Positions 1 to 34,223 of a stretch of 54,659 bases of DNA are shown here, piece by piece. The stretch covers positions 1 to 54,659 of the IMG/VR virus record IMGVR_UViG_3300033997_000276; one strand, given 5' to 3'. Origin of the DNA: a virus. Taxonomy: Duplodnaviria > Caudoviricetes. Position numbers and translations under genes: made by a program. The notes beneath the pieces were generated by a model. It did no database searches and was not told the origin of the DNA. It saw nothing but the letters and a program-made list of their open reading frames with translations. Position 1 is the stretch's first letter. Each line of letters begins with the position of its first letter.

Positions 1-625
1 TTTGCGCTAAACGGTCTGCTGTCGCTGGTGCTGACGATTGAATGATCACTTTGCCTTTGCCATTGGCGATCCCAGCGGCAGCGGCCGCATCAGCTTTAGC
101 TTGATCTGCGGCAGTTTGCGCCGTTGACGCTGCGCTGTTGGCCGCTGTTGCTGTCGCCTGCACCGTAGTGATTTGTGTTGCTAATGCGCTATCAGCATCC
201 GCGCGCGCTGTCTGCTCTTGCTGAATTGCCGCAGCGTTCTGTGTGGCCTTGGTATTGGCCGCATCAGCGGCGGATTGTGCAGCTGCTGCAGCGCTGGCAG
301 CATCCGTGGCCGCTTTATCGGTTACTGCAACCCATGCTGAGCCGTTCCAGCGCTTAGGTGTATTGGCGTTGTTTGTCGTGTCAATCCATAGGTTTTGCGC
401 TAAACGATCTGCAGTGGCAGGCTCGGAAGATTGAATAATCACCTTACCTTTGCCATTGGCGATACCAGCGGCTGCGGCAGCATCGGCCTTGGCTTGATCT
501 GCGGCTGTTTGCGCCGTTGAGGCGGCAGAGTTTGCCGCGGTGGCTGAGGCCTGCACAGTGGTGATTTGCGATGCTAAAGCGCTATCGGCATCAGCGCGTG
601 CGGTTTGTTCTTGCTTAATTAAAGC
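1..625 (-). repeat. 393-bp (131-aa) tandem repeat inside J: Ala-rich helix plus GKGKVIIQSS..NLWIDTT..PKRWNGSAW module
   Basis: tttgcgctaa.. recurs at 1 and 394, giving a period of 393. A third copy lies at 54250..54659. Confidence 0.9.
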
Positions 626-3600
626 CGCATTGCCATTGACTGTGGCTGAAATACTTATGATTTGGTTTGCCAGCGATTCATCTGCAGTGGATCTCGCCAT
701 TTGCTCTGTGATGATGGCGGCAGTGTTTTTATCAATACTGGCTGAAACCGCATCAATGCTTTTTGCTAAGGCTTCATCGGCCGCAGCTCTTGCATATTGC
801 TCAGACCAAACGCCAGCAAACACCGCAGCAGAACCCGCATTCCAGCTCATATCACCAGCAAGTGGCGGGTTTACTTGCGCAAATATACCGTCAATGCGTG
901 ATGTTTCTGCAGTCAGCTTGCCATCAATAGTTTCTATAGATGTCTCAACATTATCTACACGTACAGTCAATGCAGAAACTGCCTCGCCCAAAGAGGAGTA
1001 TTCACCTATTTTTGTCCAGTAGGCGGTATTTGTTGGCAGTGTTCCTGCAGGTACGGCTTGTTTAGCTGAGTAGAGATTCCCTTGATATTTAACCATCTGC
1101 CCGGTGAGGTAGCTGGCTGCTCCGTCCCACTCTGGTGCGCCTACAATGTCAGCGATATCTCCTTGCATTTGGTAAATTTTTTCCTGAACAAAGCCAATAT
1201 CATCTTCGATAGCAGGAATTTTTCTTACTTCTGTTTCGATAGCGGGAATTTTTCTTACTTCTGTTTCGATAGCGGGAATTTTGCTTACTTCTGTTTCGAT
1301 AGCGGGAATTTTGCTTACTTCTGTTTGAATGTCATGGATTTTATCCGTTTCAATCTTAATGATCGGGATCAGCTCAATCTCTGTTAGCAATTCTTGTCCG
1401 AGCGCTGAGGATGTGATTCGCTCACTGAAATACTCATCATATTTGGTTTGGTCGGTTGAGCTTTGGCCGTTTACAAAGTTAGACCATGGGCCCACGTTGC
1501 CAGTGCGATCAACCAATCGAGCTCTAAACCAAAAGCTAGCGCCGGCACTTAATCCTGTCATGGTGTGAGTGGCAATTGGGTAAGCAAAATCTCCTAGCTT
1601 GATCATGCCACTGTCGTTATTTTTGGGCCCGTATTCAATCTCTGTACGGAGCGTGTCCTCTGCACCTGCAGGGAACAACCAATTTAACGCAATGCCAAAC
1701 ACTAACGGCGTGGTGGTAAAAGATGCAACCGCTGGCGGTAATCCCGTTTTACCCGTGATATTGGTTAGGTCGGACGACTTAGGAACGGACGAAACGTCGA
1801 CAGAGTTGATCGCCCTCACCCGCGCAATATATTGCCCGGTGTAAACGCCACGGATATCAACCGATGTGCTGCTGGTTTTTGGCAGTTTTATCCATTCACC
1901 TGAGTCTTTACGCCATTCCACTTCATAAGCAACTGCATTTTTTGCGGTCGCCCACTGAATAGTCATAGTGGTAACAGAGAGTGTTTGCTCGGTGAATACT
2001 GACTGTGAAATGGTGACTGTTGCTGGCGCTTCTTGGGCACCGATCGGCAACTTGCTTATAGGGCGTTCTTCTAGCCGTGCGCCTGTGTCGATATAGGGGT
2101 ATTTACTTGGGTTATGCTCAACTGCGGTGATCTCGTACTCAATGCTATCGCTATTGGCTTTGGCGACACGCAGCACTCTAAATTGCTGTAGCTTTAGCTC
2201 GTCTGACTCAACCGACCATAGCAGTTGTGGCAATGGCGTTTCGCTGTATTCAGTAGTTACCGTTACCACTCGGCCATTAACGGCCTCAATGGTACGCGCC
2301 TGAGCCTTGCCGCTTGGCAAGTTAATAATCAAGCGGTCGTTAACAGCGATAGTGGCCGCACGGTCTAAGGTGACCTGCTTGCCGTTAACCGCTGAGATAC
2401 GCCCACCAATACGGCTACCTGCAATCAGTTGATCCGCTACGCCAATCACATAACCAGGTAATGGGATGCTACCATCCATACCCACTTTAAAATTAACCGC
2501 ACGGTCATTGTTATTGGTATAAATAGCCCATTTACCGCGGCGCTGCGCCTCTGATTCGCGGGTGCAACCTAAGGCGGATAATTCGACTACGTTGTCGCCA
2601 TAACGGCGCTGTAAGGCTTGATCAGATACCGAGGTAACATCGGACTCATAGGCGTTATCTGGATTATCCCAGCTGACCAAGGCGCGAGTGTATTTAACCT
2701 TTTCGCTGCTCGACGAATAGCTAAATTTGCCGTCGATCACGTTGGCATTGGTGTAGATAAAATCCATATCGCGAGGCATGTCTGCCACTGAGTACATTTG
2801 GCCGTTTGACCAGTACGTCATGCCACGGTAGATAGAGGCCAAATCGCGCAGCACTTGCCACGCCTCTGTTGCCTGCTGAATGTAGATATTGCAGATATAG
2901 CGAGGCTCCATGCCGCCTTTGCCGTCTGGCACCAGCTGATCGCAATATTGGGCAATTTGGTAAAGTTCCCATTTGTCCACCAGCGACGAATTGATCCGCT
3001 TGCCTGTGCCAAAGCGGTCGTCGAGGATAATGTCGTAACTCACCCATGCTGGATTATCGGTCCATGCGATTTTAAAGCTACCGTCCCACACGCCCGTATA
3101 TTCACGGGTAAGCGGATTGTAGTTAGTTGGTACCCGTACTTTGCGCATAAATGGTTCGCACGATACCACAGGAATATTCTGGAATTGGCTGGCATCAAAT
3201 TCCACGTACAACAATGCCGTGTTTGGGTATTTTAGCTTGCGGTCAATCACATCGGTGATCGCTGCAATTTGCATTAAATCTGCCACACGGTTGTTGTTTT
3301 GGTTTGGCGTTAAGCGGCGAATACGGATCTGCCAACTGTTACCAGCAGGTAAATCAATACGGTGGCTGCGCTCATAGGGCTGAGTGGTTTTTCCGTCCAC
3401 CGCGGTGCTTAATACGGTTTGATAGCTACCGCCATCGGTAGAGAGATCAATAGCGTACTCAATGCGATAGCCGTTTACATCGCCGTTATCAAGCTGTTGC
3501 TGCAGCGCTGGCCAGTGAAAGCGCACCCGAACTGCAGAGAGCAGTGAGTTTGTAATGGCTTTGGTGTATGGCTGCTCTGATTTTAACTCAATCCCTAATG

Positions 3601-3904
3601 CCACCTCGTTTTCAACCGATGGTAAGCCAGGAATATAGGTTTGATGTACAGAACCCGGACGAAAGTCCCAAATAACACCGGGGAAGTTTTCAGCGCCATT
3701 GGCATCGAGCAGAGGTGTGCCATCTAAAAACACATTTTGCCCGGATAATTGGCCCTCAAATTCACCTTCACCGATCGCCAGTAAAATCTTAGCTTTGGCG
3801 ATGGAGCGCAGATCATCTGGCGATTCAACCGGAGTACGCTGCTCGCTTTCGCCTGCTTTAGCGCCATGGATAACGAGTTGTTGATTTAATGCGGGAATAC
3901 CCAT
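1..3904 (-). CDS. J: Tail tip / host-specificity protein J, N-terminal ~1301 codons; runs off the left edge and continues at 54659..53740
   Basis: ATG at 3904 directly after gene I. Reads MGIPALNQQLVIHGAKAGESEQRTPVESPDDLRS... with lambda-J-like segments. Frame checked at the start, the repeats and position 1. Missing from the ORF track because it has no stop in the window. Confidence 0.9.
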   Translation of the reverse strand, partial: MGIPALNQQLVIHGAKAGESEQRTPVESPDDLRSIAKAKILLAIGEGEFEGQLSGQNVFLDGTPLLDANGAENFPGVIWDFRPGSVHQTYIPGLPSVENEVALGIELKSEQPYTKAITNSLLSAVRVRFHWPALQQQLDNGDVNGYRIEYAIDLSTDGGSYQTVLSTAVDGKTTQPYERSHRIDLPAGNSWQIRIRRLTPNQNNNRVADLMQIAAITDVIDRKLKYPNTALLYVEFDASQFQNIPVVSCEPFMRKVRVPTNYNPLTREYTGVWDGSFKIAWTDNPAWVSYDIILDDRFGTGKRINSSLVDKWELYQIAQYCDQLVPDGKGGMEPRYICNIYIQQATEAWQVLRDLASIYRGMTYWSNGQMYSVADMPRDMDFIYTNANVIDGKFSYSSSSEKVKYTRALVSWDNPDNAYESDVTSVSDQALQRRYGDNVVELSALGCTRESEAQRRGKWAIYTNNNDRAVNFKVGMDGSIPLPGYVIGVADQLIAGSRIGGRISAVNGKQVTLDRAATIAVNDRLIINLPSGKAQARTIEAVNGRVVTVTTEYSETPLPQLLWSVESDELKLQQFRVLRVAKANSDSIEYEITAVEHNPSKYPYIDTGARLEERPISKLPIGAQEAPATVTISQSVFTEQTLSVTTMTIQWATAKNAVAYEVEWRKDSGEWIKLPKTSSTSVDIRGVYTGQYIARVRAINSVDVSSVPKSSDLTNITGKTGLPPAVASFTTTPLVFGIALNWLFPAGAEDTLRTEIEYGPKNNDSGMIKLGDFAYPIATHTMTGLSAGASFWFRARLVDRTGNVGPWSNFVNGQSSTDQTKYDEYFSERITSSALGQELLTEIELIPIIKIETDKIHDIQTEVSKIPAIETEVSKIPAIETEVRKIPAIETEVRKIPAIEDDIGFVQEKIYQMQGDIADIVGAPEWDGAASYLTGQMVKYQGNLYSAKQAVPAGTLPTNTAYWTKIGEYSSLGEAVSALTVRVDNVETSIETIDGKLTAETSRIDGIFAQVNPPLAGDMSWNAGSAAVFAGVWSEQYARAAADEALAKSIDAVSASIDKNTAAIITEQMARSTADESLANQIISISATVNGNAALIKQEQTARADADSALASQITTVQASATAANSAASTAQTAADQAKADAAAAAGIANGKGKVIIQSSEPATADRLAQNLWIDTTNNANTPKRWNGSAWVAVTDKAATDAASAAAAAQSAADAANTKATQNAAAIQQEQTARADADSALATQITTVQATATAANSAASTAQTAADQAKADAAAAAGIANGKGKVIIQSSAPATADRLAQ
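1205..1326 (-). repeat. 4 x 30-bp tandem repeat in J encoding TEV(S/R)KIPAIE
   Basis: ttcgatagc(a/g)ggaattt(t)(t/g)cttacttctgt repeated four times. Confidence 0.95.
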
Positions 3905-4664: not shown

Positions 4665-5883
4665 CTAACTAGGCAAGATCGCTTTTAAGCCCCTTGCCTC
4701 AAGTTCGTTTATGCTACGTCTAACCGTTGCGGCAAAACACACACCATCACGCATATGATCAATCATCTGTGTGCCAGCGCGAGAGCCAAGCATAGTAAAC
4801 ACCTCATACAGCTTGTATTCGTCAAAGTACTTTTTCAAATAATCCATATGAGTGCAAAGCCCTTTGATATTGTGAATATCGTACTCATTTAGCAAAGGTT
4901 GTGGCGCGATTGCAGGGGCAGCAGGAATAAATTCGCCGTCTAACGGTACCCGCGCGGCAAGCGATAACGCCTCGGTAAATTGGTCTTCCGCTATTTGCTT
5001 GTAGGTGGTGCCAAAGTGAGACTTTAGCGCCGACCACATGGTAATAATCGCTTTAGCCTGCTTGTCTTTAGGTAGCGATTTACCACGGTACATGACTAAC
5101 TGAGCTGGCGACGGGATTCTGAATTTTTTTCACAAAAAGTAACTTAACCTGCTGACTCATATACATAAACCATCAACGCAAACTCAATCTCGGGTGTTAT
5201 AGCCTGAGCGAACGGCATGTGAATGTGGCCAGAGCGAGGCAATGTGGCATGTACCATTCCATACCGGCAAAACCGGCGGTTTGACAGGGTTCTGACGCTA
5301 ACAAGTAATAACCCAGAATTATTACTTGTTAGAATTACAGAATTTCAGCGGGTTCTGAACTGTATTTCAGTACGTATATACATATTACGTATTAGTACGA
5401 AATGAAAAAGCAGAAAAAAATTCAGAATCCCGTTGGACCCTCTAACTGCTTTATGGCTGTTTGCTGCTCTAGCGTAATTTTACCTTGCTGTGACTGGGTG
5501 GCTTTGCGCGGATTTTTGACTTCGCCTTTTGTCCAGTATTCATAAAGCACATCATCACACTCTTCTTGATACTGAATAACCCGATCGCGAATTTCAGGCT
5601 TAACCTTGTTTGGCTGGATGCTTGAAAGCCACGCTGCAAACTTACGAAAAGCCAAGCATGTCATTTCACGATTTTTACGATCAGAAGCAACCATTGTGAT
5701 TTCCACAACACTTCTAGTAAACCTTTGCTTTATCTTTGTGAACTGTGAAGCCCAGTCCAACCCCATTCCTTCAACGATAGGTTTCATTGGGACATAAGGC
5801 TCGTTGTTTATACTCACAACAAAAAGACTTGCTCCATGAAAAGGGACGTTGATTGTACGATCTGCAATTGCTAAACTTGTCAT
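4665..5883 (-). pseudogene. ant: P22 Ant-like antirepressor split by a 341-bp insertion
   Basis: The N-part (MTSLAIADRTINVPFHG..YQEECDDVLYEYWTKG) and C-part (MYRGKSLPKDKQAKAIITMWSALKSHFG) rejoin in frame as IKQLVMYRG, giving a 290-aa ORF once 5102..5442 and one TAACT are removed. Confidence 0.85.
5102..5442. mobile_element. Non-autonomous MITE-like element, 341 bp
   Basis: Termini GAGCTGGCG-ACGGGATTCTGAATTTTTTT and (reverse complement) GAGGGTCCA-ACGGGATTCTGAATTTTTTT with a 20-bp perfect inner IR. TAACT is duplicated at 5097..5101 and 5443..5447. No transposase inside. Confidence 0.85.
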
Positions 5884-5960
5884 GTCAATGATTCCGCTTT
5901 GATTTGTTGATATAGAGGCCTCAACTGTTGCTGCAGTTGGGGCTTCATTCTTTATGGCGG

Positions 5961-6635
5961 TCATGCGGCCACCCCTTCACTCACTAACTTCTCACAAATC
6001 CACGCCTCACCCGCTGGGGTAAACATGGCCTGCGAAAAACCTTGGTCGGTTTGGCGTAGCTTTCCAAAGCCTTTATCAATAAACCACTGCTGAAACACTC
6101 TGCCGCGTTTAATGGCGTGGCTATAAACGTCATGTTCATCCAAAAATTTATTTAGGCGAACAGCGGACAAGTTATGCTTTTGCGCCACTTGGCTTGCATT
6201 CATTAATGTGTCACGTACCACCAGCCGATCGAAAAACTCCACTTTAGGCGCTTGTTGCTCGAGTAGCTTGGCTTGGTTAGCGGCGAGTTGCAGTGCTTCT
6301 GCAAATGAATGCGGGATCTGCGGGTAAGGCTTAGACTGCTTTGCTTCCAACTCTTGCCAGCGATCGACCAGTCTTGCGGTAAACTCAGGTGAAAGCTGGG
6401 CAACAACAATAATGCTATCGCGCTTGCCTTGCTCGCCAGAGAATACATAGTGTTTTGACTTCGAATTTTGGCTTAAGCTGTTGATATTCTCGAAAACCCC
6501 CATTGGGGGAAGTTGAATTACCCCATTTTTTGCCAAGCGTTCGATAGATTGCTTTACTTTGTCATGACGAGATCCAACTAGGTCGGATATCTCTCCACTG
6601 GTCATGGTCAATTGGTTGCCGGTGATTAATTTCAT
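5961..6635 (-). CDS. Rha-family regulator with C-terminal ANT/KilA-C antirepressor domain
   Basis: LTMTSGEISDLVGSRHDKVKQSIERL..VVAQLSPEFTARLVDRWQELE..IPHSFAEALQLAA..APKVEFFDRLV. ATG 6635 overlaps the upstream stop (ATGA). Confidence 0.85.
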   Translation of the reverse strand: MKLITGNQLTMTSGEISDLVGSRHDKVKQSIERLAKNGVIQLPPMGVFENINSLSQNSKSKHYVFSGEQGKRDSIIVVAQLSPEFTARLVDRWQELEAKQSKPYPQIPHSFAEALQLAANQAKLLEQQAPKVEFFDRLVVRDTLMNASQVAQKHNLSAVRLNKFLDEHDVYSHAIKRGRVFQQWFIDKGFGKLRQTDQGFSQAMFTPAGEAWICEKLVSEGVAA

Positions 6636-6820
6636 GCGGCCTCCTGATTTTGCATAGTTGCCGCCTTTTCTTCTCTTAAGCATTTTGCAAGTCTCATCAC
6701 AATGGCAGAATTAAGAGAGATAAAGTCCATTTCTGCTTTTTGTTCAAGTTCAGCCCTCATCATTTCTGGAAGATTCAAGGTGAACCGACTTGTTTTATTT
6801 TGTTGCAGTCTGTCTTTCAT
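6632..6820 (-). CDS. Arc-like ribbon-helix-helix repressor
   Basis: RFTLNLPEMMRAELEQKAEMDFISLNSAIVMRL; first gene of the antirepressor operon. Confidence 0.75.
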   Translation of the reverse strand: MKDRLQQNKTSRFTLNLPEMMRAELEQKAEMDFISLNSAIVMRLAKCLREEKAATMQNQEAA

Positions 6821-6843
6821 TTTTAACCATCCTTAAGTCAACA

Positions 6844-6905
6844 TAGCACCAAGTTGGTACTAATACCATTTTGGCACTATTTTTTGATATGTCAAGTTGG
6901 TACTA
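6844..6905. promoter_or_regulatory. Operators and divergent promoters of an immI-like module
   Basis: CAAGTTGGTACTA at 6850..6862 and 6893..6905; palindrome TAGCACCAAGTTGGTACTA; TTGACA on the minus strand at 6890..6895. Confidence 0.6.
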
Positions 6906-6946
6906 TCACCAAGTCAACGATATTTGATTATTAATGGATCGACATT

Positions 6947-7279
6947 ATGAAAGACTACCCTAGCCAAGAGATGGATAGATTCAATGTTAGGCTACCTGCT
7001 GGAATGAGGGAGGCAATTGCAGAACGCGCTAAAGCTCATGGCAGATCTATGAATTCTGAAATAGTAAAGATTCTGCAAGACACGCTTAACAGGTCTTCAT
7101 TGGAAATAGATAAGCTAAATGAGCTAGATGTTACTGAACTGCAAGAAATAGTAAAAACACAGGCAGCTATATTGCTTAAATATAACGAAACAATAAGCAA
7201 TAGTTACGACACAATTGCTGGAATAATGGATTTTCTTAATCAGAAAAAACAGGAAAAAAACCAAGCTAAAGATAAGTAG
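6947..7279 (+). CDS. Arc/Mnt-family repressor, divergent from the ant operon
   Basis: YPSQEMDRFNVRLPAGMREAIAERAKAHGRSMNSEIV. Confidence 0.85.
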   Translation: MKDYPSQEMDRFNVRLPAGMREAIAERAKAHGRSMNSEIVKILQDTLNRSSLEIDKLNELDVTELQEIVKTQAAILLKYNETISNSYDTIAGIMDFLNQKKQEKNQAKDK

Positions 7280-7309: not shown

Positions 7310-7828
7310 CTATTGAGACATGATTACTTCGGCAGTCTCACCATCTTGAAGGTAAACCCTTTTCAGCAATAACCCACCTTGCCGACTGTAGTCGCCAGTC
7401 ATCCAAGTAATTGAGGTTGTCACGTAATAAGTACCATCGGCAAGATCTTTAAACTTAAACCTACCTTCTGAATCACAAACTGTTGTTTTTGAATATTTAT
7501 CATAATCGGCTGGACGTGGTGGCATTTTCTTATTAAATATCCCCTCATCCGCCGCGAAGCCGCGCTCTGTCGTACCAAAGTATGCTAAAGCGCGTTCTGT
7601 GGCGTATGCGGTTGCAGGGACTAGCTGAACAGTCATGCCAGAGCAGGTAACTATGCCGCCACCACGCTGGCGTAGAAAAGCATTACCTTCAATGGAGTTG
7701 TTACCTTTTTCCATTAATTTTTTCGCTTCCACGGCATCAAATTGAGCGTTTAACTTTACTGTCGGTGATGCACAGCCGGCTAATGAAATAAGCACAATAG
7801 CAGCTAAACCTAATTTAAGTTTTTTCAT
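7310..7828 (-). CDS. Lipoprotein moron, function unknown
   Basis: MKKLKLGLAAIVLISLAG-C lipobox; beta-rich body ..CDSEGRFKFKDLADGTYYV. Confidence 0.75.
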   Translation of the reverse strand: MKKLKLGLAAIVLISLAGCASPTVKLNAQFDAVEAKKLMEKGNNSIEGNAFLRQRGGGIVTCSGMTVQLVPATAYATERALAYFGTTERGFAADEGIFNKKMPPRPADYDKYSKTTVCDSEGRFKFKDLADGTYYVTTSITWMTGDYSRQGGLLLKRVYLQDGETAEVIMSQ

Positions 7829-7914: not shown

Positions 7915-8628
7915 TTATCCTGCATAGCGTACTATCAAGCGGGTATTGCGTTGCCAGTATCCGCCATAGATATCGTAGCGGCTAAGGCGCCCGTAGAGGT
8001 GATGCAGGATCTTGCCTTCGCCAACATAAACAGCAGCGTGATTAACTCGCTGGCTTTGGATTTGCATTAAGAACACATCGCCAATTTGTAGATCGGCTAG
8101 ATTGATATTTGGCAGCGCCACAAATCCCGCTTTGGCAAAGTTATCGAGGTATAGCTCTTGCTCACCTTCCCACCAGCCGTCTTGGCGCTCAAAGTCTGGC
8201 AAATGGATTTGTTGCACCTCACGGTACCAATCGCGAACGCAGCTATAGCAATCCCACACGCCATGGACAAACGGACGGTTTAGCAGTGGTTTACGCTCAC
8301 CCGTTGGCACTATGGTGCGTAAGTCACCATCAGGCCAGCTGAGGATATGCCATGGCAAGCCACTCGCCTCACACATGGCGCGATCGCGCTCACTGGGTTT
8401 GCTACTGGCGTCTGGGTGGCTGTGGCAAATACCGATTATTGCGCCTTGTTCGTCAATATCCGCGTATTGCTGCGGATCAATCACAAACTCATCGGCTTTG
8501 TTAGTTGCCTTGTTTTCGCATGGCACATATTGCGCTTTGTTGCCTTGCCGGATCAGCAGGCCACAACATTCGTGAGGGTAGCAGCTAGCCGCATGCTGAC
8601 TGAAGGCATGTAAAATGGTTGGATGCAT
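7915..8628 (-). CDS. K: Tail assembly protein K (MPN/JAB + NlpC/P60)
   Basis: YPHECCGL, HSHPD, RPFVHGVWDCYSCVRDWY, NHAAVYVG..LHH. Confidence 0.92.
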   Translation of the reverse strand: MHPTILHAFSQHAASCYPHECCGLLIRQGNKAQYVPCENKATNKADEFVIDPQQYADIDEQGAIIGICHSHPDASSKPSERDRAMCEASGLPWHILSWPDGDLRTIVPTGERKPLLNRPFVHGVWDCYSCVRDWYREVQQIHLPDFERQDGWWEGEQELYLDNFAKAGFVALPNINLADLQIGDVFLMQIQSQRVNHAAVYVGEGKILHHLYGRLSRYDIYGGYWQRNTRLIVRYAG

Positions 8629-8679
8629 AGGGACCTGCTTAGTGAGTTAGACCATTTTGCTGACGGCGGGAAAATGCTT

Positions 8680-9420
8680 TTAACGTATTAGCCTAACGCT
8701 TGGGAAGCCGCCATGGGGTAATTCGTTATTTTCGCCAAAGCGTAAGGTGCAGCCTTTTATTGTGCCTGAGCACTGGTCTAGCGCTGGGTTATCGGTTGGT
8801 TGATCTTCATCGGTAAACATGGCCTCTCCTGTGTAGCCACAATCCGCGCCGCGATATTCACCCCGTTGGCACCAGTAGCAATACGCAGTCATTTGCCTAC
8901 CGATTTTATAGCCAGAAAGGTCGGCAGGGTTAGACAGCTCAAAGGTAACGGCGACATTATCCTCGTTGACCTTTTTATCGACATACCAAATCTCAATCGC
9001 TTCTTGAGTTGGATCCGCCTCACTATTGCCGCCGGGGAAGTTGGCTGCATCAAGATATTTTGCCAGCGTGCGGCGAATAGTGACCTTAGCTTGCTCCATA
9101 TTTTGAAAATACAAACACAAGGCACTAATGCTGCCATCGAGGTTAGCCACCGTTAGCGTTGGCGTACTTGGCGAGCCATCTGAGTTAACCTCTACCCCTT
9201 CTAGCTGGGCTGGCCATGGATTGTATTCTTCGCCCTGCCAATAAATCACTTTTGCTGGCAGTGGCTGCTGTGTTTGTGCTGCTTGTGTTAGCTCAGCCTC
9301 GGTATAGCTCAAATTATGGGAATGAAACCGCAGTATATCGGCGCCAAAGGCGGTACCGTCGATTTCGTAGAGAATAATCTCATTGCCCGGTTCGAGGGTT
9401 TGAATATCTGCACTAAGCAT
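8680..9420 (-). CDS. L: Minor tail protein L
   Basis: PTLTVANLDG, RRTLAKYLDAANF, Fe-S cysteines CYWC..YRGADCGY..DQCSGTIKGC..RFG, GGFP. Confidence 0.92.
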   Translation of the reverse strand: MLSADIQTLEPGNEIILYEIDGTAFGADILRFHSHNLSYTEAELTQAAQTQQPLPAKVIYWQGEEYNPWPAQLEGVEVNSDGSPSTPTLTVANLDGSISALCLYFQNMEQAKVTIRRTLAKYLDAANFPGGNSEADPTQEAIEIWYVDKKVNEDNVAVTFELSNPADLSGYKIGRQMTAYCYWCQRGEYRGADCGYTGEAMFTDEDQPTDNPALDQCSGTIKGCTLRFGENNELPHGGFPSVRLIR

Positions 9421-9694
9421 CGGCTGATACCATAGGGAATCTTGCTTTTATTTCTAGCACTTTGGCTCGCCATTTTGCTTCTGTAGCGGGCGTCTTATCG
9501 TATTGCCACTCCAAAAATAACGGGTCTGACTCTTGTACGTATGCCGCCTTTCTTTTTGTAATGACGCCTTCTCCTTCTTCGTAAGATTTTTGATTCATCA
9601 CTGACTCAATCTGCTCAACACTCATGCCGATTTCCAGCATGTAGTCATTTGATGTGTCAGTGTGAGATTTGCCCTCAAAAATATAACTAAACAT
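9413..9694 (-). CDS. Small DGR-associated protein, possibly a tail fibre chaperone
   Basis: SD AGAGGTG before ATG 9694; overlaps the RT stop and the L start; RKAAYVQESDPLFLEWQYD..WRAKVLEIKARFP. Confidence 0.6.
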   Translation of the reverse strand: MFSYIFEGKSHTDTSNDYMLEIGMSVEQIESVMNQKSYEEGEGVITKRKAAYVQESDPLFLEWQYDKTPATEAKWRAKVLEIKARFPMVSADA

Positions 9695-10961
9695 GTTCAC
9701 CTCTTTTAAATGGCTGGCTTAATAGTGAGACTCTTAGCGAAAATGTATCAGCGTGGCTGGCGTGGCCGATCCATGACTGTATCGTTTGGTTTATGTCTTT
9801 AATATCAATCTCTCCAGCACTGTATTTTTTGCGAAATATTTTTAACTTTGCTTTAATGCGCTTTACGCTGCTTTTGCGCAGTAACTTTTTATTTGCGTAT
9901 ATGCGATAGCCAAGAAAATCAAGGCTTCTTCCGGCAGATGCTGCCACGGGGAATACCTGAGTTTTGCTGTTTGTTTTCAGCCTTAGCTGACAATTAATGA
10001 ATCTCTCTATCATCACCCTCCACTGATGCAGCTGCTGCTTGTCGTGATGAATAATCACAAAATCATCCATGTATCTGACGTAATTTTTGGCTTTTAGCGT
10101 ATGCTTAGCGAATCTGTCCAGCTCGTTTAGGTATAGGTTTGCAAAAACTTGGCTGGTGAGATTGCCAAGAGGGATCCCAACGCCGTGCGCGTCAGAAGGG
10201 CTGCTGTCTATGATGTAAAACAGTAGGCACTTGGTGCGCTCACACTGTATTTTAGCGCTGACAAGCGACTTAAGTATGTGGTGATCTATGCTAGAGAAAT
10301 AGCGGCTAATATCCGCTTTTAGCGCGAAAGCCTTGCCGTGCGTTTTCTCTACGCGCCTAATAAAGAGCTGAGCTCTATCAGCTCCCTTGTGAGTTCCTTT
10401 GCCGCGGCGGCAGGCGTAAGAGTCGTGGATGTATTGCCGATCAAAAATCGGCTCGATGATGTTATAAATTGCGCGGTGCACCACTCTGTCTCGAAAGCTG
10501 GGCGCAGATATTAATCTTCGCTTTGGCTCGAACACATAAAAATGGTGGTATGGCGATGATAGGTACATGCCCCAAATCAACTCGTTTTGGATCTGGATGA
10601 TATTTTCTTCTAGATTGTTAAAAAATACTAATGTGCTATTTGATTTCGTTTTCCCTTTGCGGCACTGATAAGCCGCATTTAGTAAATTTTCAAACTGATA
10701 TATTTGCTCAAATAAACAGCCCACTGGCGCACCGGCGGGCGTGGCTAAATCTATTTCGGCAATGGCCGGGGCTAGTGCATCCTTTTCATTTTTGCGCTGG
10801 CAGCACCCAGTAAGATGCTTGCTTCTGGCGTAATCAAGAGCTGGACGGAAACCGATGTTGATGTTCGAGTTCGAACGCGGGTTATTGAGGTTGAGCGCGC
10901 CAAGGCCGGCGTTGACGCCGTTGTTCCAGTTGCCGCCACGGATCGGTTCCAGTGTATTCAT
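9687..10961 (-). CDS. DGR reverse transcriptase; catalytic domain starts near 10724 and the ORF includes TR in frame
   Basis: EPKRRLISAPSFRDRVVH, KADISRYFSSIDH, GIPLGNLTSQ (DGR-type LGxxxSQ), YVRYMDDF, DFLGY. Confidence 0.95.
   Translation of the reverse strand: MNTLEPIRGGNWNNGVNAGLGALNLNNPRSNSNINIGFRPALDYARSKHLTGCCQRKNEKDALAPAIAEIDLATPAGAPVGCLFEQIYQFENLLNAAYQCRKGKTKSNSTLVFFNNLEENIIQIQNELIWGMYLSSPYHHFYVFEPKRRLISAPSFRDRVVHRAIYNIIEPIFDRQYIHDSYACRRGKGTHKGADRAQLFIRRVEKTHGKAFALKADISRYFSSIDHHILKSLVSAKIQCERTKCLLFYIIDSSPSDAHGVGIPLGNLTSQVFANLYLNELDRFAKHTLKAKNYVRYMDDFVIIHHDKQQLHQWRVMIERFINCQLRLKTNSKTQVFPVAASAGRSLDFLGYRIYANKKLLRKSSVKRIKAKLKIFRKKYSAGEIDIKDINQTIQSWIGHASHADTFSLRVSLLSQPFKRGEHV
10839..10946 (-). 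repeat. DGR template repeat (TR), 108 bp
   Basis: Aligns without gaps to 11383..11490; 24 adenines, 10 AAY codons; all 11 mismatches are at TR adenines. Confidence 0.97.
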
Positions 10962-11311
10962 AATGCATTAGCCTGTTTATTGTTAATTGATTTAATCCAT
11001 CCTCCCGTCATTTTGCCAATTTCAACAATCTGCACTATCCATCGCTGATACCGGCTGATGTCGATATAACGCAGATCCTTGGCCAGCCTTATCATCCGCT
11101 TTAGCACCGCTAGTTCTACGTCCAAGTCGGTTAAGGTGGTCTTTTTGTGGTAGCGCTTCATTGCAGTGATGATTAGGCGCTGCATATGCAGCATTGACCG
11201 CCGAATTTCAGCGCCAAGAACATGTGTTTCATGTTTTGGGAATTGCTTAATGGCTTGATAGCCAAACACTATCATCTCTCTGCATTTTTCTTCAATTATC
11301 AATGCTGGCAC
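10958..11311 (-). CDS. avd: DGR accessory variability determinant Avd
   Basis: QFPKHETHVLGAEIR..KKTTLTDLDVEL..EIGKMTGGWIKS; lies between the target and TR. Confidence 0.92.
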   Translation of the reverse strand: MPALIIEEKCREMIVFGYQAIKQFPKHETHVLGAEIRRSMLHMQRLIITAMKRYHKKTTLTDLDVELAVLKRMIRLAKDLRYIDISRYQRWIVQIVEIGKMTGGWIKSINNKQANAL

Positions 11312-11333
11312 TGGCGATACCTTTTAATTAACC

Positions 11334-11351
11334 GCCGCGCTATCGCGCAGC
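11334..11351 (-). promoter_or_regulatory. DGR target-recognition hairpin downstream of VR
   Basis: GCTGCGC-GATA-GCGCGGC: 7-bp GC-rich stem with one T:G pair and a GRNA-type loop, ~20 nt after the target stop. Confidence 0.7.
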
Positions 11352-11370
11352 TAACAGAACACAGTCTACT

Positions 11371-12576
11371 TTACGCAAAATAAGCTGGACGGAAACCGAT
11401 GTCGACGTTCGAGATCGAACGCGGGAGACTGAGGCTGAGCGCGCCAAGGCCGGCGTTGACGCCGCTGCTCCAGTGGCCGCCACGGAGCGGTAATCGCTGG
11501 CCGAAGTTGCGCACGTACACTCGTCCCTGCAAATTATTTGCAGTAGCCGTCTCAATAAGCAGCCGACGCATCAACTCGCTGGGGGTGTATGCTGCATCCT
11601 TTGTTAGTAATTTAAAATCCACGGTAGCCGAATTGCCAGCGTTAGCACTGTCTCCTATTGCTCCAAGTCGGTTGATCACTTGGCTATTTAGCCGTGGCGC
11701 TCCGCCTGTGGGCGAAGTTGAATCGTAAAATGCTTGATGTGAAACCCAGTTAACCTCGGCAACAGATGGGTCATTGTCGAGCGTTGTTTTTATCTGTCCT
11801 TCTGAAAGCAACATTTGATCTTGCCACTCCCAAATATTTCCAACTAAATCGTGGATACCATGCACAGTGTGGTCATGCGTCCATGTTGCAGGGCCTTTTC
11901 CGGTGTCAGTTCTTCCTGTGCCACTCGCGTCACCTGGTACACCATTATCTGCACGGCGGGCCGTTTCATGCAGTTTATCGTGAGCGCGACCATAGTTTGT
12001 ATTGCCGCGGGGCACAGTACCGTTAGCAAGAGACCATAGCGCAATTGCCGCCCACTCATGCATTGACATTAAATGCCAATTCGCGCCTTTGTTGGTGCAC
12101 CGTGATTTTGCTTGATCATAATTAACTCCGGTTAACGGCTGCACACCACCAACAACTGAGCACGTTGTACCTCCAGCGCTGGCAAGATATTTTGCGATCA
12201 ATATTTCTCCGCGTGAGGCTCCGTTTGTCAGAAAGGCGGTTGGTGTTCCCGTTCCAAGTTGTAGGTCAGTTAGGCCAAGCGATTCGTAGGTGAATCGCGG
12301 CACAACAACCATCACATTTGGATTGCCTTGGGCGTCATAAATGACAGTGTTGCGACCGCCGCTTAACGCCTCAACCTCCTGTCGACGTGGATCTTTAATC
12401 AGAATCTGCAGTCCTGCTTTGTCAATGACATGATTATCATTTGACGTGCCGACTTCGCGGGAAGCGGAATGAGTCGGCGAGCTGAAATTAGCATTAAATT
12501 TTTCGGCTAAGTTACGCGCTGTATCGCCGCCAGCTCCCGACGGAGATGTGCCTAGATTGACTGTTGCTATAGCCAT
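11371..12576 (-). CDS. DGR target: Mtd-like tail or receptor-binding protein with C-terminal CLec/FGE-type fold
   Basis: N-terminus MAIATVNLGTSPSGAGGDT resembles a tail-fibre anchor. WHLMSMHEWAAIA, GIHDLVGNIWEW and RGGHW..IGFRP are FGE/CLec motifs. VR is at the 3' end. Confidence 0.9.
   Translation of the reverse strand: MAIATVNLGTSPSGAGGDTARNLAEKFNANFSSPTHSASREVGTSNDNHVIDKAGLQILIKDPRRQEVEALSGGRNTVIYDAQGNPNVMVVVPRFTYESLGLTDLQLGTGTPTAFLTNGASRGEILIAKYLASAGGTTCSVVGGVQPLTGVNYDQAKSRCTNKGANWHLMSMHEWAAIALWSLANGTVPRGNTNYGRAHDKLHETARRADNGVPGDASGTGRTDTGKGPATWTHDHTVHGIHDLVGNIWEWQDQMLLSEGQIKTTLDNDPSVAEVNWVSHQAFYDSTSPTGGAPRLNSQVINRLGAIGDSANAGNSATVDFKLLTKDAAYTPSELMRRLLIETATANNLQGRVYVRNFGQRLPLRGGHWSSGVNAGLGALSLSLPRSISNVDIGFRPAYFA
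11383..11490 (-). repeat. DGR variable repeat (VR)
   Basis: Encodes PLRGGHWSSGVNAGLGALSLSLPRSISNVDIGFRPA versus TR PIRGGNWNNGVNAGLGALNLNNPRSNSNINIGFRPA. Confidence 0.97.
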
Positions 12577-12615
12577 ATTAACTCCATAAATAGATTGGTT
12601 CAGCGCCAGGGCGCA

Positions 12616-12951
12616 TCAAGGATGAAATGCTTGTTCGAAAGTGGCGGCGATGCGATACATGCCGCCGCCTAATGGGGTGTTGGTGACCTGCTTAACTTGC
12701 CATAGCGATGCAGTGCCAAGGGGTGGCGTCCAGATAAATGACGTAGCGCCTTGGTGTTCGTCAAGAAAGGCGACTATCGCCTCGGCCGTGGCTTTGTTTT
12801 TGGTAAACGTCAGCGGCCAGCTCTGCACCTTGCTGTTAATGCCATCGCCTACTGATTGGCGGTAGCCATCACCAAACTGAGCGGTGCGAGTACGATATTG
12901 GGTGTCGCCTGTGGCGCCATTATCTGGCGCCCATGTGAATGTTTGCGGCAT
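12616..12951 (-). CDS. M: Minor tail protein M (distal tail)
   Basis: TFTWAPD..AQFGDGYRQSVGDGINS..FLDEHQGATSFIWTPP..FEQAF. Confidence 0.92.
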   Translation of the reverse strand: MPQTFTWAPDNGATGDTQYRTRTAQFGDGYRQSVGDGINSKVQSWPLTFTKNKATAEAIVAFLDEHQGATSFIWTPPLGTASLWQVKQVTNTPLGGGMYRIAATFEQAFHP

Positions 12952-12954
12952 TAT

Positions 12955-13260
12955 TTATAAGCCTTTCATTTTTTGAATTTTCTGCCAAATAAACCCATTT
13001 GGCTGCAAAGATTCAATCATCATGGCTTCCATATCAGCGGTCACTTGCTGCGTTTTGGCGTTTAGCTGCTTGGCAATATCCATGCGGTAATCACCATCGG
13101 CAGAAACAGTGACTAAAATTCCCGCTAAAACCTCAGAAAACGCTCTCACTCTCTCCCGAATTTCTATTGCAGTTGTATTATGGGTGACATCATTAAAGAA
13201 AAACTGAATAGCGGAATCACTTAGCAAGGTAATTAATACCTCTTTGTTATATTGATACAC
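12955..13260 (-). CDS. Hypothetical protein between tape measure and M
   Basis: Fills the gap exactly; GGAGGG SD upstream. Confidence 0.55.
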   Translation of the reverse strand: MYQYNKEVLITLLSDSAIQFFFNDVTHNTTAIEIRERVRAFSEVLAGILVTVSADGDYRMDIAKQLNAKTQQVTADMEAMMIESLQPNGFIWQKIQKMKGL

Positions 13261-13261
13261 C

Positions 13262-16200
13262 TTAATACCCTCCCTTCATTGCTCGCCAAATCATTCCACC
13301 CGGTCTAAGTTCTAGCGCGATTTGTGTTTTAGTACCTTGCTTAGATGACTCCGCGTAAGCCTTAATAACCTCGTTCATATTTGTATTGTTAGCCCCGTTA
13401 TTGTTATTACTTTCTGGCACAATAATTTGCTGATTGATGATGACGTTAGGACTTGTTCCAGCCATTGCGGCAGCAGGAACGCCGTTATAGGCTGCGCCGC
13501 CAACTACACCACCGTCCGCATAGCCTTTGTGGCCTTTACGCATGGCTTCAACCGTGGCCACACCACCCGCACGGGCGATATCTTGTTGTGACCAAACCAC
13601 CTCACCTTTATGCACGATGCCAGCAGGCTCATACTTGCCACCCGCGCCAGTGTATCCGCCTGATGATTTGCCGTTTTTAATCCATTTTTGATAAGCGTCT
13701 CCGGTGTAATCGGATGCACTACTACCTCCAACAACCCCACCATCTGCAAACCCAAACATGCTGCCAATAAATCCAGCAATGGCTTTTTGCATGGCGATTT
13801 TGGCAAGATCAGCCAAGATAGACTTGGTTAGCTCCGCAAAGTCGGCCTTACCTGAGGTGACAAAGTCGGTAAGCGCGTCGGTCATACCGCCAAAGGCGTT
13901 GTCCATTAACCGCTCTGTTTGCCCAGCCATATCTGCGGCGGCATCAATGTAATTCTCCATTGATGAACGGGCACCATTTGTCCAATCGGCTTGTTTGGCG
14001 TCGAGGGCGATGTAATACGCATTTTTTTCATCAAGCAGTTTTGCTTGATGATCTTTTAGCATCAACAACTGCTGTTGATATTCTTCGTCAGTCGTTCTGC
14101 CAGCTAGGTTATCGGATAATGCTTTTCCCTTGGCGCTTTCTATTTCGCGCTCAATGCTTTGGCGATCACCTAGGCGTTGTTGTGCTTTATCGCCTAAGCC
14201 AAAGCTGGAGAGTTTGTCGGCATTGCGTTGTTGCTCTGCAGCTAAGTTGGCCGCAAGGTTGGCGCTATAGCTTTGTTGACGTAAGGCCTGATCGCGCAAC
14301 TTTATTTGCTCTGCCAGCGCAACGTTCATTTGGTTTTCGGCGCGAAGCTGGTCTTCTTTTGCTAGATAGCTTTTTTGATCTGCCGTGAGAATGTCTTTTG
14401 ATTTCAAATCCGCGATTTGCTGCTCAAACTGCAATAGCTCCTTTTGCGATTGCGTCAGTTTAGTGTTGCTGTCTAGTTGGCCTTGCAAGCCTGCTTGAGT
14501 TTCGCGCAGGCGCATCAGGTAGCTAGTTGCAGCATCATCGGCAAAGGCTTTGGTGGTTTTGGCAGAGTCTTTAAACTTTTCTTCGATCGAGGCGAGTGTG
14601 CGCTTGATTACCTCAGGATTTAGCAGGGCGTTGTTTGGATCATCCTTGCGCAACTCTTCTATTTCTTTATTATATTTTTCAATCTCTTTGGTGCGCTTTT
14701 GCTCATTTGTTAGGCTTTTTTCATTTTCAGCGCCTAAATACTTAACCCGCTCAATGCGCTCTAGTTCAAGCTTTGTACGCTCGCCTTCAAGTCTGGCTAA
14801 TTCTTCCTCTTTCTGAATCTGTTTTACCAGCTCATTACCTTCTGCCTGTAACTTGGCTAATTGGTTTTCACGGCGGATTGCCTCACGGCCAGACCCCTTA
14901 CCCTTAGCAATTAGCGCATTTATTTCTTTTGCATTTTCTGCAAGCAATTGTTTTTTATCTGGGCCATTAAGGTAATACATTGCTCCGCGAATCATCGCGT
15001 CCCAACCTTCAGATGAAACCTCTTTTACCGTTTTCCAAGCGCCCTCGATACGACCAAGGTTTGCAGTAATCTCCTTGGTGCGCTGATCAATAGCATTGCC
15101 ATAGGCACTAAAGGCGAGTTCTGCGGCCTCAGTGGATTTACCCGCTTCTTTTAAGGCAACAATTTGCTGATAGGTTGATGCTGTAAGAAAGTTATATTTT
15201 TTATTAAGTTCTTCGGCAGCTTTTACCGGGTCATCGGCCAGTTTGACAAATTCCGCCACCGTATCAGCAACAGCTTTTCCGGTGACGTCTTCCATTTTAA
15301 CGGCAGCAAGGCCAACTAGCTCGATTTGGCTGGCGGTAAACTTGCCAGTATTGGCAACCTCAGCTAATGCAGCAGCGGCTTGGCGCTGAGTACCGCTAAT
15401 GGCATCAATACGCTTTGCGGCGTCCATAAGTTCGTCAGAGGTGGCACCCGCTGAGTTGCCAGTTAAGATCAGCGCATTTCTAAGTCTATCGGCTTCTACG
15501 CTACCCTGATAATACGCCAGTGCCATTACACCCGCTGCCGCAGCAGCTACGGTAAATGGATTAACTAAACCTAAAATATATGTACCAACACCGCTAATAG
15601 CGGGACCGATGCCGCCAAACATATCGCTGATTTGAGCACCTTGTTGCAGCAATACCGTCAGAGCATCTTGGCCACCTTGCAGTGATACTGCAATATCGTT
15701 AAATTGCGCTGGCAATCCGCGGATTGCCCAACCCAATTGACTTGAGGACTTAGCGCCAGCCGCATACTCCTCATTAGTCCCAACTAAATCTCGGCGCATT
15801 TCAGACAAACGTTTAGAGTAAAGGTCATATTCAGATGAATTTATTAAGCCTTTGGCAGAGCTAGATCTTAATAACTCTTGCGCTTTATCGAGCTCTCTAA
15901 TTTCAAAGATGACAGGATCAAGTCTTTGCTGCAGCCGTTGTAATTCTGACTGTTGTTGCTTGGTTTCCGCCTCAGCCTTCATTTGCGCTTCTGTTGTGCC
16001 ATCAATGGCCGAGCGCATTTGGTTAAGTTTTACTATTGCGCTATCGTATTGTCCCTTATCTATATTACCTGCAGCGAAGGCCGCTGATAGTTTAGTATTT
16101 TGCGATTCTAACTCTGCCAGCTTTGCTGTTACTGGATCTAACTGACGCAATAGCCCTTGCAGTTCCGCTTGCTCTTTTTGCTGAGCAGATTGCAGCCGAC

Positions 16201-32977: not shown

Positions 32978-33486
32978 AAATCCCCCTTGCCAAATAAGGC
33001 GATTAACGCAGCATCGCGGGTATCGGCATTGCTGCGGCCAGTCCAGCCGGTGATTTTGTTAAAATACACACTGCTATCCTTAGCCTTTTTCACTGGGCCA
33101 CGCAGCGGTTTAACCAAAGTCACGGTAATCCCTTTGTCCTCGAGTACTTCTTTAATTAATCTTGCCGTGGCTTTCACTTTTCCCAAGTCCTCGGCCTTGC
33201 TCATATTGATCTTAAATTCACTACCGCCTTGGCTTGGGGCATGGCCAACGTAAGCCAGCAATGGATTTTGGCCTTTGGCAGTCCGCTTTAACTTGCTAGC
33301 GAATACTGGATTTTTGTTATCCACATCCTCAAGCAGCACAACGCAAGGCGAACTCGCAGCACTGCAAACAACAAACTCAATCAACTCACTAAAACCCATG
33401 CTCTTAAGCAGCTGTATCTTGCCGTCCACCACAGTGGCCACGCCGCTTTTAGTGAGATCAGGATCAATACCAATAATTAGCTTCAT
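32968..33486 (-). CDS. RuvC-like Holliday junction resolvase
   Basis: IIGIDPD..SGVA, LLED, RDAALIA. Confidence 0.7.
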   Translation of the reverse strand: MKLIIGIDPDLTKSGVATVVDGKIQLLKSMGFSELIEFVVCSAASSPCVVLLEDVDNKNPVFASKLKRTAKGQNPLLAYVGHAPSQGGSEFKINMSKAEDLGKVKATARLIKEVLEDKGITVTLVKPLRGPVKKAKDSSVYFNKITGWTGRSNADTRDAALIALFGKGDLCR

Positions 33487-34223
33487 GCTGCCTCCGCATT
33501 ACCAGCGCAATACTTAGCAAACGCATCAGCATAAAAATCAGCATCTTGTTCGATGCCAATGTAATTACGCCCAGTGTTCATGCTGGCTATTCCGCTTGAG
33601 CAACTACCAAAGCAAAAATCAAGAACGGTCTCTCCATGATTGCTATATGTGTTGATAATCCATTCGCACAGCGCTACTGGTTTACGAGTAGGGTTAATTC
33701 TTTCGCCCTTCCTTTTTTGCTTATCTGATGAGAAAAACTGAACAGAACGTGGGTAACGGCTAGTGCTGTCGTAAACAGACCCTTTTGAGCCTTCTCCATA
33801 GCACTCACTGCCTGTTTTCTTTCTTGATGCTGTTTTTCTTGGATGACCATGCGTCATTTGTGGGTTGTAAGTGCCAACTCCATTACAAAAAATAAGCACA
33901 TGCTCATGAGCTCTCATTAGTTGCTTTTTGGCATTGTAAAAACCTGTCGCATTACCTTTTTCCCAAACTATTTCTTCTTTAAACCAAGGTAAGTTTGAGC
34001 ATGTTAAAACCGAGGTGAATGGCTGTGCTGCATGCATTGCAATAACACCATTAGGCTTAATAATTCGTTTAAGCTGCTCCCACATTGGAATTAGAGGAAT
34101 AACTTCATCCCATGCGCAGCGAGTCGTTCCGTAAGGAACATCTGCATAAATCAAATCAATGCTGTTATCAGGTATGCCTTTCATCAGCTCGAGGCAATCT
34201 CCATGTAGTAATTTAAAGTCCAT
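33483..34223 (-). CDS. DNA amino-methyltransferase (N6/N4, beta class)
   Basis: LLHGDCLELM, DVPYG, NPTRKPVAL, VLDFCFGS. Confidence 0.9.
   Translation of the reverse strand: MDFKLLHGDCLELMKGIPDNSIDLIYADVPYGTTRCAWDEVIPLIPMWEQLKRIIKPNGVIAMHAAQPFTSVLTCSNLPWFKEEIVWEKGNATGFYNAKKQLMRAHEHVLIFCNGVGTYNPQMTHGHPRKTASRKKTGSECYGEGSKGSVYDSTSRYPRSVQFFSSDKQKRKGERINPTRKPVALCEWIINTYSNHGETVLDFCFGSCSSGIASMNTGRNYIGIEQDADFYADAFAKYCAGNAEAA

Follow-up and report, generated by a model that had tools for sequence, protein, structure and literature searches.

A diversity-generating retroelement (DGR) encoded among the tail genes of a phage raises the question of what it diversifies, whether it is still doing so, and how it came to lie where it does. 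The element considered here is on the minus strand of the IMG/VR virus record IMGVR_UViG_3300033997_000276 (54,659 nucleotides; this whole stretch is called the window), between the genes of the minor tail proteins M and L. An earlier note, made from the letters alone, had called it a complete DGR that diversifies a tail receptor-binding protein and had regarded its placement as the unusual part. Our results indicate that, very probably, a complete and recently active DGR in the late tail operon of a lambda-like temperate siphophage diversifies a chimeric fibre, that the fibre head, avd, the template repeat (TR), the reverse transcriptase (RT) gene and a small open reading frame (ORF) travel together as a module, and that the small ORF encodes a partner of the head. 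The DGR itself is complete and real, and it is probably active. Anatomy, adenine bias, homologies, synteny and the natural polymorphism of the variable repeat (VR) were computed here; from them we infer that the target protein is present in the virion and switches tropism.

The repeat pair and the parts of the element

A repeat search returned a single direct repeat, in which 10839-10947 and 11383-11491 match over 109 nt at 90% identity without a gap. The 11 mismatches between TR and VR, read on the coding strand, all fell on A in the TR copy, where the VR had G (6), C (3) or T (2). The TR contains A at 25 of its 109 positions, and the hypergeometric probability of all 11 mismatches falling on A was 1.2e-8. 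The same bias was found throughout the clade: in 27 TR/VR pairs (26 loci and the window), 351 of 362 mismatches by our own sum were at a TR A. In the frame of the target the TR contains nine AAC, one AAT, three ATC and one CCA codon, which gives 15^10 x 4^3 = 3.69e13 theoretical protein variants, with no stop codon possible. The VR ends 9 nt ahead of the stop codon of the target. The ungapped alignment of the earlier note, its mismatches at TR adenines only, its ten AAY and three ATC codons and its estimate of about 4e13 variants were all recovered, the alignment at a length of 109 nt. The parts of the cassette and its two neighbours are as follows.

12616..12951, minus strand: minor tail protein M, the upstream neighbour (PF05939 Phage_min_tail, E 3.6e-36)
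11371..12576, minus strand: DGR target, 401 aa, a probable chimeric tail fibre or receptor-binding protein (phrog_2889, E 2.6e-130; PF03781, E 3.2e-6; 63% identical to ORF35 of Vibrio phage VHML)
12442..12576, minus strand: putative N-terminal adaptor, residues 1-45 of the target, a T4 gp9/gp10-type motif (62% identical to the slot protein of Acinetobacter phage TCUAN1; match of the slot profile)
11374..12396, minus strand: C-type lectin (CLec) head of the FGE type, residues 61-401 of the target (profile match to PDB 5VF4, TaqVP; Foldseek)
11383..11491, minus strand: VR, covering the 36 full codons that precede the last three codons and the stop (repeat pair; polymorphic at sites of TR adenines)
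11334..11351, minus strand: GC-rich hairpin or cruciform with a 7-bp stem and a GATA loop, 31 nt past the VR end (conservation in relatives)
10958..11311, minus strand: avd (PF22296 bAvd, E 4.2e-31; NF033474 DivGenRetAVD equivalog)
10839..10947, minus strand: TR (repeat pair, adenine-biased mismatches)
10725..10838, minus strand: spacer from the TR to the RT core, 114 nt, in frame with both (reading frame)
9687..10961, minus strand: RT, with its core from near GTG 10724 (PF00078 RVT_1, E 3e-19; phrog_1423, E 1.7e-164; LGNLTSQ and YMDD)
9413..9700, minus strand: small ORF, 95 aa, likely start ATG 9694 (phrog_5714, E 1.4e-26)
8680..9420, minus strand: minor tail protein L, the downstream neighbour (PF05100, E 4.4e-74)

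All genes of the region are on the minus strand, and the order along it, with the cassette between M and L, is target, hairpin, avd, TR, RT and small ORF, so that the coordinates of ORFs, families and repeats agree with the order given in the earlier note. The RT stop overlaps the start of the small ORF by 8 nt, and the stop of the small ORF overlaps the start of L by 8 nt, which makes the cassette a part of the tail operon.

The hairpin (GCTGCGC-GATA-GCGCGGC) was found 27-34 nt past the VR in all 27 related DGRs, with a loop of GATA, GGTA or GAAA and with stems that vary by paired, compensatory changes. Its fold energy by itself was ordinary (z -0.63), so the case for it rests on this conservation. 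The hairpin of the window and those of its relatives fit the rule for phage DGRs of 7-10 bp GC stems and 4-nt GRNA loops at 4-34 bp from the VR (Guo et al. 2011, PMC3240598). Avd matched the NCBIfam equivalog NF033474 at 105.8 bits (cut-off 80). The RT carries both YMDD, of the form YxDD, and LGNLTSQ, of the form [I/L]GxxxSQ that is a mark of DGR RTs, and its NCBIfam matches were to group II intron, Drt and retron models, all below their cut-offs. The repeat pair, Avd, the RT motifs and the hairpin together substantiate a complete DGR with the adenine signature of Bordetella phage BPP-1.

The ORF of the RT opens at ATG 10961, where start codon and avd stop overlap (ATTATGA), and it reads through the TR and the 114-nt spacer in frame. 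The TR lies within the RT frame in 23 of 24 related elements. Because of this conservation of the in-frame TR and spacer, the RT may be made with an N-terminal extension encoded by the TR, as has been noted for the Pseudoalteromonas phages ACA1 and ACA2 (PMC10612066). Folding of the TR-spacer RNA gave a stability that was not exceptional (z +0.49).

Variation of the VR in natural populations

Locus L004 lies on a viral contig that shares 92% identity with the window across 7.4 kb and is laid out in the same way. Its TR differs from that of the window at 2 sites and its VR at 13, of which 12 are sites of TR adenines and one copies a C>T change in its own TR; the probability of at least 12 of 13 VR differences falling on such sites was 3.5e-8. 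Four public sequencing runs from one study (X1-X4) hold 0.94-1.00 of the sampled words; X5-X20, which hold smaller shares, were left aside as a guide to habitat. X2-X5 were compared with the window over 10700-12700 as Logan contigs, not raw reads, in which rare variants are dropped. The main contigs of X2-X4 showed no difference from the window outside the VR and TR, and the listed VR differences (11468, 11469, 11474 and 11475) were at TR-adenine sites in four cases of four, changing CAC to AGC and AGC to TAC. In X3 and X4 an alternative VR allele was fixed, and X2 held three alternative VR unitigs with depths of 23.2, 16 and 12.1 between flanks of 48 and 54. X4 contained in addition one TR change (10880) and a second strain differing in avd. 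In X5, which represents a more distant relative, 10 of the 13 listed VR differences were at TR-adenine sites. Copies of the TR and the VRs of other phages were ruled out as sources of the run alleles, since the new codons are not AAC and the depths of the X2 unitigs sum to that of the flanks. The earlier note had proposed to look for variation restricted to TR adenines; within the VR the X2-X4 contigs differ only there at the listed sites, a partial confirmation that comes from contigs and not from reads. These observations support the view that the element has been active recently.

The TR change at 10880, C>T on the coding strand, was seen in X4, X5 and L004, and the same change was seen in the VR of L004 and X5 but not in that of X4. 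This pattern fits a flow of information from TR to VR, with the VR of X4 not yet rewritten at this site.

The variation among the runs takes the form of an internal patch at 11465-11475, comprising two to three adjacent codons derived from AAC, while the flanking substituted sites of the VR (11487, and 11435 down to 11403) are identical in all alleles. The patch is odd because the flanking sites should have been reset if the VR had been replaced in its entirety or, as for BPP-1 (PMC3240598), from an anchor at its 3' end.

The target and the M-L slot

The target matched PF03781 at 27.4 bits (cut-off 23.3), as well as phrog_5302 'tail protein' and phrog_1836 'tail fiber protein'; a search of NCBIfam gave no match for it. 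Its identity of 63% to ORF35 of VHML extends over residues 55-400. When a profile of 27 homologues was aligned with PDB entry 5VF4 (TaqVP, from the DGR of a prophage of Thermus aquaticus), residues 61-402 of the query matched 8-384 of the chain at E 5.9e-94. The AlphaFold2 (AF2) model of the target had a mean predicted local distance difference test (pLDDT) score of 63.5 and a predicted template modelling (pTM) score of 0.69, with residues 1-61 below a pLDDT of 50, and Foldseek searched with this model again returned 5VF4 at the top (E 4e-25, template modelling score 0.67-0.70), with FGE, PvdO, TvpA and Mtd far behind. By sequence and by modelled fold, the head of the target is a homologue of a solved CLec variable protein with the VR in its C-terminal part, and the assignment to the CLec/FGE fold in the earlier note is sustained by PF03781, by the profile and by the predicted structure.

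Residues 1-45 share 62% identity with the N-terminus of a 391-aa TCUAN1 protein whose gene also lies between M and L; beyond its N-terminus that protein is unrelated to the target (PF25670; phrog_1836 'tail fiber protein'), and no DGR accompanies it. A profile of 25 N-termini from slot proteins, that of the window included, matched residues 2-41 of T4 gp10 (E 8.3e-6) and a gp9-type fibre connector (E 1.5e-4). The N-terminus of the window by itself gave no Pfam match at E up to 10, and one relative (L078) matched PF07880 at E 0.0063, below the cut-off. Residues 1-45 resemble in sequence the N-terminus of T4 gp10/gp9 and form a putative docking motif.

The M-L slot was surveyed in 80 viral-contig loci, the best of 142 with a relative of the window's M (43-100% identity). 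Both M and L were present in 73 of the 80 loci, with a gap of less than 100 nt in 15 and of 0.7-3.4 kb in 58. The ORF after M was L in 16 of the 80 and another ORF in 64, and 62 of these 64 slot ORFs carry the motif INxGxxPNDGTGDxxRxAFxKxNxNF, as in the N-terminus of the target. The slot ORFs are 86-958 aa long, and those examined were of fibre type (phrog_14489/1836 in L059; Collar and phrog_6921 in L078). In the loci with the closest M relatives (L059-L072, 86-100% identical) the slot is occupied by fibre-type proteins of 700-900 aa that do not belong to a DGR, and only two of the 64 slot ORFs are DGR targets (L005, and L063, which is the contig of L004). The Acinetobacter phages TCUAN1 and vB_AbaS_qsb1 also have M-fibre-L without a DGR, in the order tape measure protein (TMP), small ORF, M, fibre, L, K, I and J. 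Within this lineage the placement is nothing out of the ordinary, since most loci have a slot ORF and nearly all of these share the N-terminal motif of the target. The earlier note had taken M and L to be normally adjacent and their separation to be the unusual part, and neither view held for the lineage. Because relatives hold a fibre gene in the M-L slot, the DGR opened no new site; the head and the DGR replaced an existing head. Judged from these comparisons, what is particular to the window is a slot protein whose head appears to have been exchanged for a CLec head plus DGR. A literature search, weak on subscription journals and without supplements, found no account of a DGR between M and L and none of an M-L fibre slot.

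In L059 the 762-aa slot fibre is followed by a 222-aa ORF (8652-9320) with matches to DUF4376 and to tail-fibre PHROGs, a pair that parallels the head and small partner of the window.

The module, its small ORF and the rival explanations

The target matched 62 phage records, the best being VHML (63%) and ACA1 and ACA2 (59%), and scans gave 47 loci on viral contigs and 6 in genomes. The named relatives of the head come from Vibrio, Shewanella, Pseudoalteromonas, Aeromonas and Aliidiomarina. Synteny by tblastn gave the module three kinds of setting: the M-L slot (L004 and L007, with L005 cut after the first 224 residues of its target), the region downstream of J in other lambda-like contigs (L017, L021, L026 and L034), and the fibre position of P2-like tails (VHML and the ACA phages). 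Only residues ~55-400 of the target are common to all settings, and the N-termini differ by setting. The element is a DGR of the VHML and Pseudoalteromonas ACA clade. Matches with 29-30% identity were also seen in Klebsiella phages, in which the head gene ends a different tail module and no avd or RT was found in the stretch seen.

Among known systems, the mtd-avd-TR-brt element of BPP-1, which is not a lambda-like siphophage, shares with the window the order target(VR)-avd-TR-RT, the adenine-specific differences and a VR in the last codons of a CLec-fold tail protein. Both have a GC hairpin with a 4-nt GRNA loop after the VR, at 31 nt in the window and at 4 in BPP-1, both distances being within the published range of 4-34 bp (PMC3240598). 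The two differ in that the TR of the window is in frame with the RT, and Mtd, being 40th in the fold search (1yu4, E 2.5), is only a distant relative of the target. VHML, ACA1 and ACA2 are the closest named relatives: the head, avd, RT and small ORF of VHML are 63%, 54%, 62% and 58% identical to those of the window, and ACA1 has, like the window, an in-frame TR extension of the RT and a third small protein of unknown function (PMC10612066). That paper thus already describes the VHML-type module, with its third small gene and a TR that is in frame. These phages differ from the window in having P2-like contractile tails, with the module in the tail-fibre position after the baseplate genes, and in lacking a counterpart of target residues 1-54. 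The ACA1/ACA2 homologue of the target is called the antireceptor of these phages; it was detected by virion mass spectrometry, and the difference in host was ascribed to its VR (PMC10612066). TaqVP is a homologue of residues 61-401 with ~35% identity in the fold alignment and has an FGE-type CLec fold with a C-terminal VR (PMC6328139); unlike the target it is a single-domain monomer without an N-terminal adaptor. In the kappa-like prophage of Vibrio cholerae HE-09, a BPP-1-type DGR, along with the 3' portion of its target, took the place of a section of a resident fibre gene and gave a fusion (Schillinger et al. 2012, PMC3521204), in another DGR clade, phage type and slot. The slot fibres of TCUAN1 and vB_AbaS_qsb1 share the position and the 45 N-terminal residues (62%) and differ in their C-terminal PF25670 Phage_tail_C_2 / phrog_1836 part and in having no VR, avd, TR or RT. 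Most viral DGR targets are tail proteins in which a C-terminal CLec VR is combined with N-terminal parts of various kinds, and viral DGRs are broadly active (Roux et al. 2021, PMC8144416).

A homologue of the small ORF follows the RT in 22 of 23 related DGRs with a complete RT. It also lies directly after the head gene in 14 loci that have neither avd nor RT, and in 10 of these it starts 2-32 nt past the head stop with no hairpin between; because of its presence there, the small ORF goes with the head and not with the RT. Locus L013 keeps the hairpin without avd, TR or RT, and in L014, L025 and L052 the hairpin stem is split by an insertion; these four loci look like traces of DGR loss. The AF2 model of the small ORF product (pLDDT 87.5) consists of a beta-hairpin and two long helices, for which Foldseek found no match in PDB at E <= 0.001. 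The product had no Pfam or NCBIfam match, and in the ESM Atlas it fell among unnamed clusters, the nearest named one being XkdW at 0.90, which is a lead only. In L033 the N-terminal 45 residues of the small ORF are fused to PF16778 Phage_tail_APC (E 1.1e-18). This is the single homologue of 23 with such a match, which covers only its C-terminal half, and hhalign of the small-ORF family against that half gave a probability of 0.15%, with no likeness in the C-terminal half. Membership of the small ORF in Phage_tail_APC is not supported, given the lack of a Pfam match and this hhalign result. Our best guess, which may as easily be wrong as right, is an assembly or accessory factor of the head.

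The element would work as follows. By analogy with BPP-1, the spacer would be part of the template RNA along with the TR, this RNA would be copied by the RT together with Avd, with the adenines copied unfaithfully, and the cDNA would take the place of the VR in the 3' end of the target gene, with the end of the TR/VR homology and the downstream GC hairpin with its GRNA loop as guides. The first ~45 residues of the target would be the T4 gp9/gp10-type docking motif common to nearly all slot genes of the relatives, and residues 61-401 the C-type-lectin head of the TaqVP/VHML type, with the VR in the last ~36 codons. The module of head, avd, TR, RT and small ORF would move as a unit among the fibre slots of P2-like tails, the position after J and the M-L slot, and the small ORF would be a partner of the head, with assembly or accessory factor as its likeliest role, outside the retrohoming machinery.

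Several points weigh against this account. The runs are not independent of the window, as it may derive from X1-X3 themselves and X4 belongs to the same study; they were represented by Logan contigs, in which rare variants are lost, and one VR unitig of X2 has three further differences that are absent from the difference table. The internal patch of VR variation is predicted neither by replacement of the whole VR nor by 3'-anchored replacement and is unexplained. The confidence of the target model was only moderate, and below a pLDDT of 50 in the very residues (1-61) that include the adaptor; the link to gp10 comes from the profile of 25 slot N-termini, the window's own having no Pfam match. 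Trimerisation of the target is a guess, as TaqVP, a CLec protein of the FGE type, occurs as a monomer (PMC6328139). For the small ORF neither a family nor a fold match was found, and its C-terminal half bore no detectable resemblance to Phage_tail_APC. Homing, incorporation into the virion and receptor binding are steps that we infer, and trimeric docking and the role of the small ORF are of the same kind.

Other explanations were weighed against the same evidence. The cassette might have created a new, extra adhesin by inserting between otherwise adjacent genes, which would make its placement and wiring novel. M and L are adjacent in lambda itself, L directly follows M in the 16 relatives counted above, and the literature search found no paper on an M-L DGR; the slot survey contradicts this explanation all the same, given the 64 loci with an ORF between M and L and the 62 with the same N-terminal motif, the large non-DGR fibres next to the closest M relatives, and the M-fibre-L order without a DGR in TCUAN1 and qsb1, and we consider it very unlikely. 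The element might instead be a fossil, with old TR/VR differences and an RT that no longer rewrites the VR. The variation in the runs touches only two to three codons, and DGR loss is common in the clade, as judged by the 14 loci without avd or RT, four of which keep a whole or broken hairpin. All parts of the element are intact, however, three VR alleles occur together in X2 between invariant flanks, X3 and X4 are fixed for a different allele, and the new codons AGC and TAC are neither those of the window nor the AAC of the TR; a fossil is therefore highly improbable.

The small ORF could also be an accessory factor of the DGR, acting in cDNA synthesis or homing like the accessory genes of some DGRs. 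Its constant position after the RT in related DGRs, with its start overlapping the RT stop, would suit such a role, and its ACA1 homologue gp45, of unknown function, is counted with the DGR module in PMC10612066. A role in homing is hard to square with the 10 loci in which it follows the head at 2-32 nt without avd, TR, RT or hairpin, and in L033 a tail assembly chaperone domain is attached to its N-terminal part, so that we regard this role as unlikely. It is barely credible that the target is not a virion protein at all and has its function inside the lysogen or the infected cell, such as that of a variable binding protein serving defence or exclusion: proteins of the TaqVP type are monomeric and soluble (PMC6328139), and oddly high spectrum counts of the prophage-type antireceptor were obtained in the preparations of PMC10612066, but the target gene is inside a tail operon of overlapping or tightly spaced genes, its N-terminus matches fibre-type proteins and the T4 baseplate proteins gp10/gp9, and its matches include phrog_5302 'tail protein' and phrog_1836 'tail fiber protein'. 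A diversified fibre with the small ORF as partner of its head remains our preferred reading.

The gene content of the window shows the phage to be a temperate, lambda-like siphophage with a circular genome of 54.7 kb. J leaves the window at position 1, resumes in frame at 54659 and stops at 53740, so that the record is circular or circularly permuted and J consists of the segments 1-3904 and 53740-54659. The statements of the earlier note that the target is encoded among lambda-type tail genes and that a full J is retained were upheld, J (1607 aa) being complete only when the record is read as a circle; it matched FNIII-A_GpJ, Phage_Tail_Tip and, weakly, CBM_5_12. The gene set includes terminase, portal, a Clp-type protease, capsid, a lambda-like tube, TMP, M, L, K, I and J, together with a CI-like repressor, CII, an O-like replication protein and two integrase-family genes. 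Tail matches came in lambda order (TMP_2 / Tape_meas_lam_C, Phage_min_tail, Phage_tail_L, JAB + NlpC/P60, FNIII-A_GpJ and Phage_Tail_Tip), that to Lambda_tail_I being weak (E 9.5e-4, below the cut-off), and both the slot genes and an Arc/Ant region that separates K from I break the order. Megablast of 8600-13300 against phage records gave no match.

The break between K/orf172 and I is an immI-like region (4665-7279) within the tail operon, which contains an Arc-like repressor on the plus strand (6947-7279) and three Ant/KilAC/P22_AR_N-type genes on the minus strand. The lambda gene order is also broken by orf101 (12955-13260), which lies between TMP and M and belongs to no family, TCUAN1 having an 86-aa ORF at the same place, and by orf172 (7310-7828), which follows K and matches phrog_14789, with weak transthyretin-like and SdrD_B matches below the cut-off. 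After J, a 368-aa ORF (52637-53743) matches the PHROG 'membrane protein' moron family. The early region (44036-48654) contains a DndB-like gene, an MT-A70 methylase and a C5 cytosine methylase, and a further N6/N4 methylase is found at 33483-34223.

As DGR-diversified tail proteins are the founding example of targeted hypermutation, one more such DGR is unsurprising, and the oddity of its placement dissolves; the points worth keeping are the modular slot, the partner ORF and the patch-wise variation of the VR. Near-identical populations that differ only at the VR sites of TR adenines are a clean natural case of the signature of current activity. Patch-wise rewriting, if true, is not predicted by the current 3'-anchored model of homing, and, if confirmed with reads, it bears on how the cDNA is integrated. 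A wider proposal, that the M-L space is a general, hot-swappable side-fibre locus throughout a large lambda-like siphophage lineage whose slot proteins dock by a gp9/gp10-type motif, that a self-contained DGR module moves among this slot, the position after J and the fibre slots of myoviruses and that the VR is rewritten in short internal patches, is tentative and, taken as a whole, rather doubtful. The slot with its gp10-like adaptor is common among the relatives and may serve lambda-like tails in general as a place where side fibres attach, and a unit of DGR and head that is plugged into three tail architectures through exchangeable N-terminal adaptors names a concrete docking motif for testing and would explain how DGRs spread among phages.

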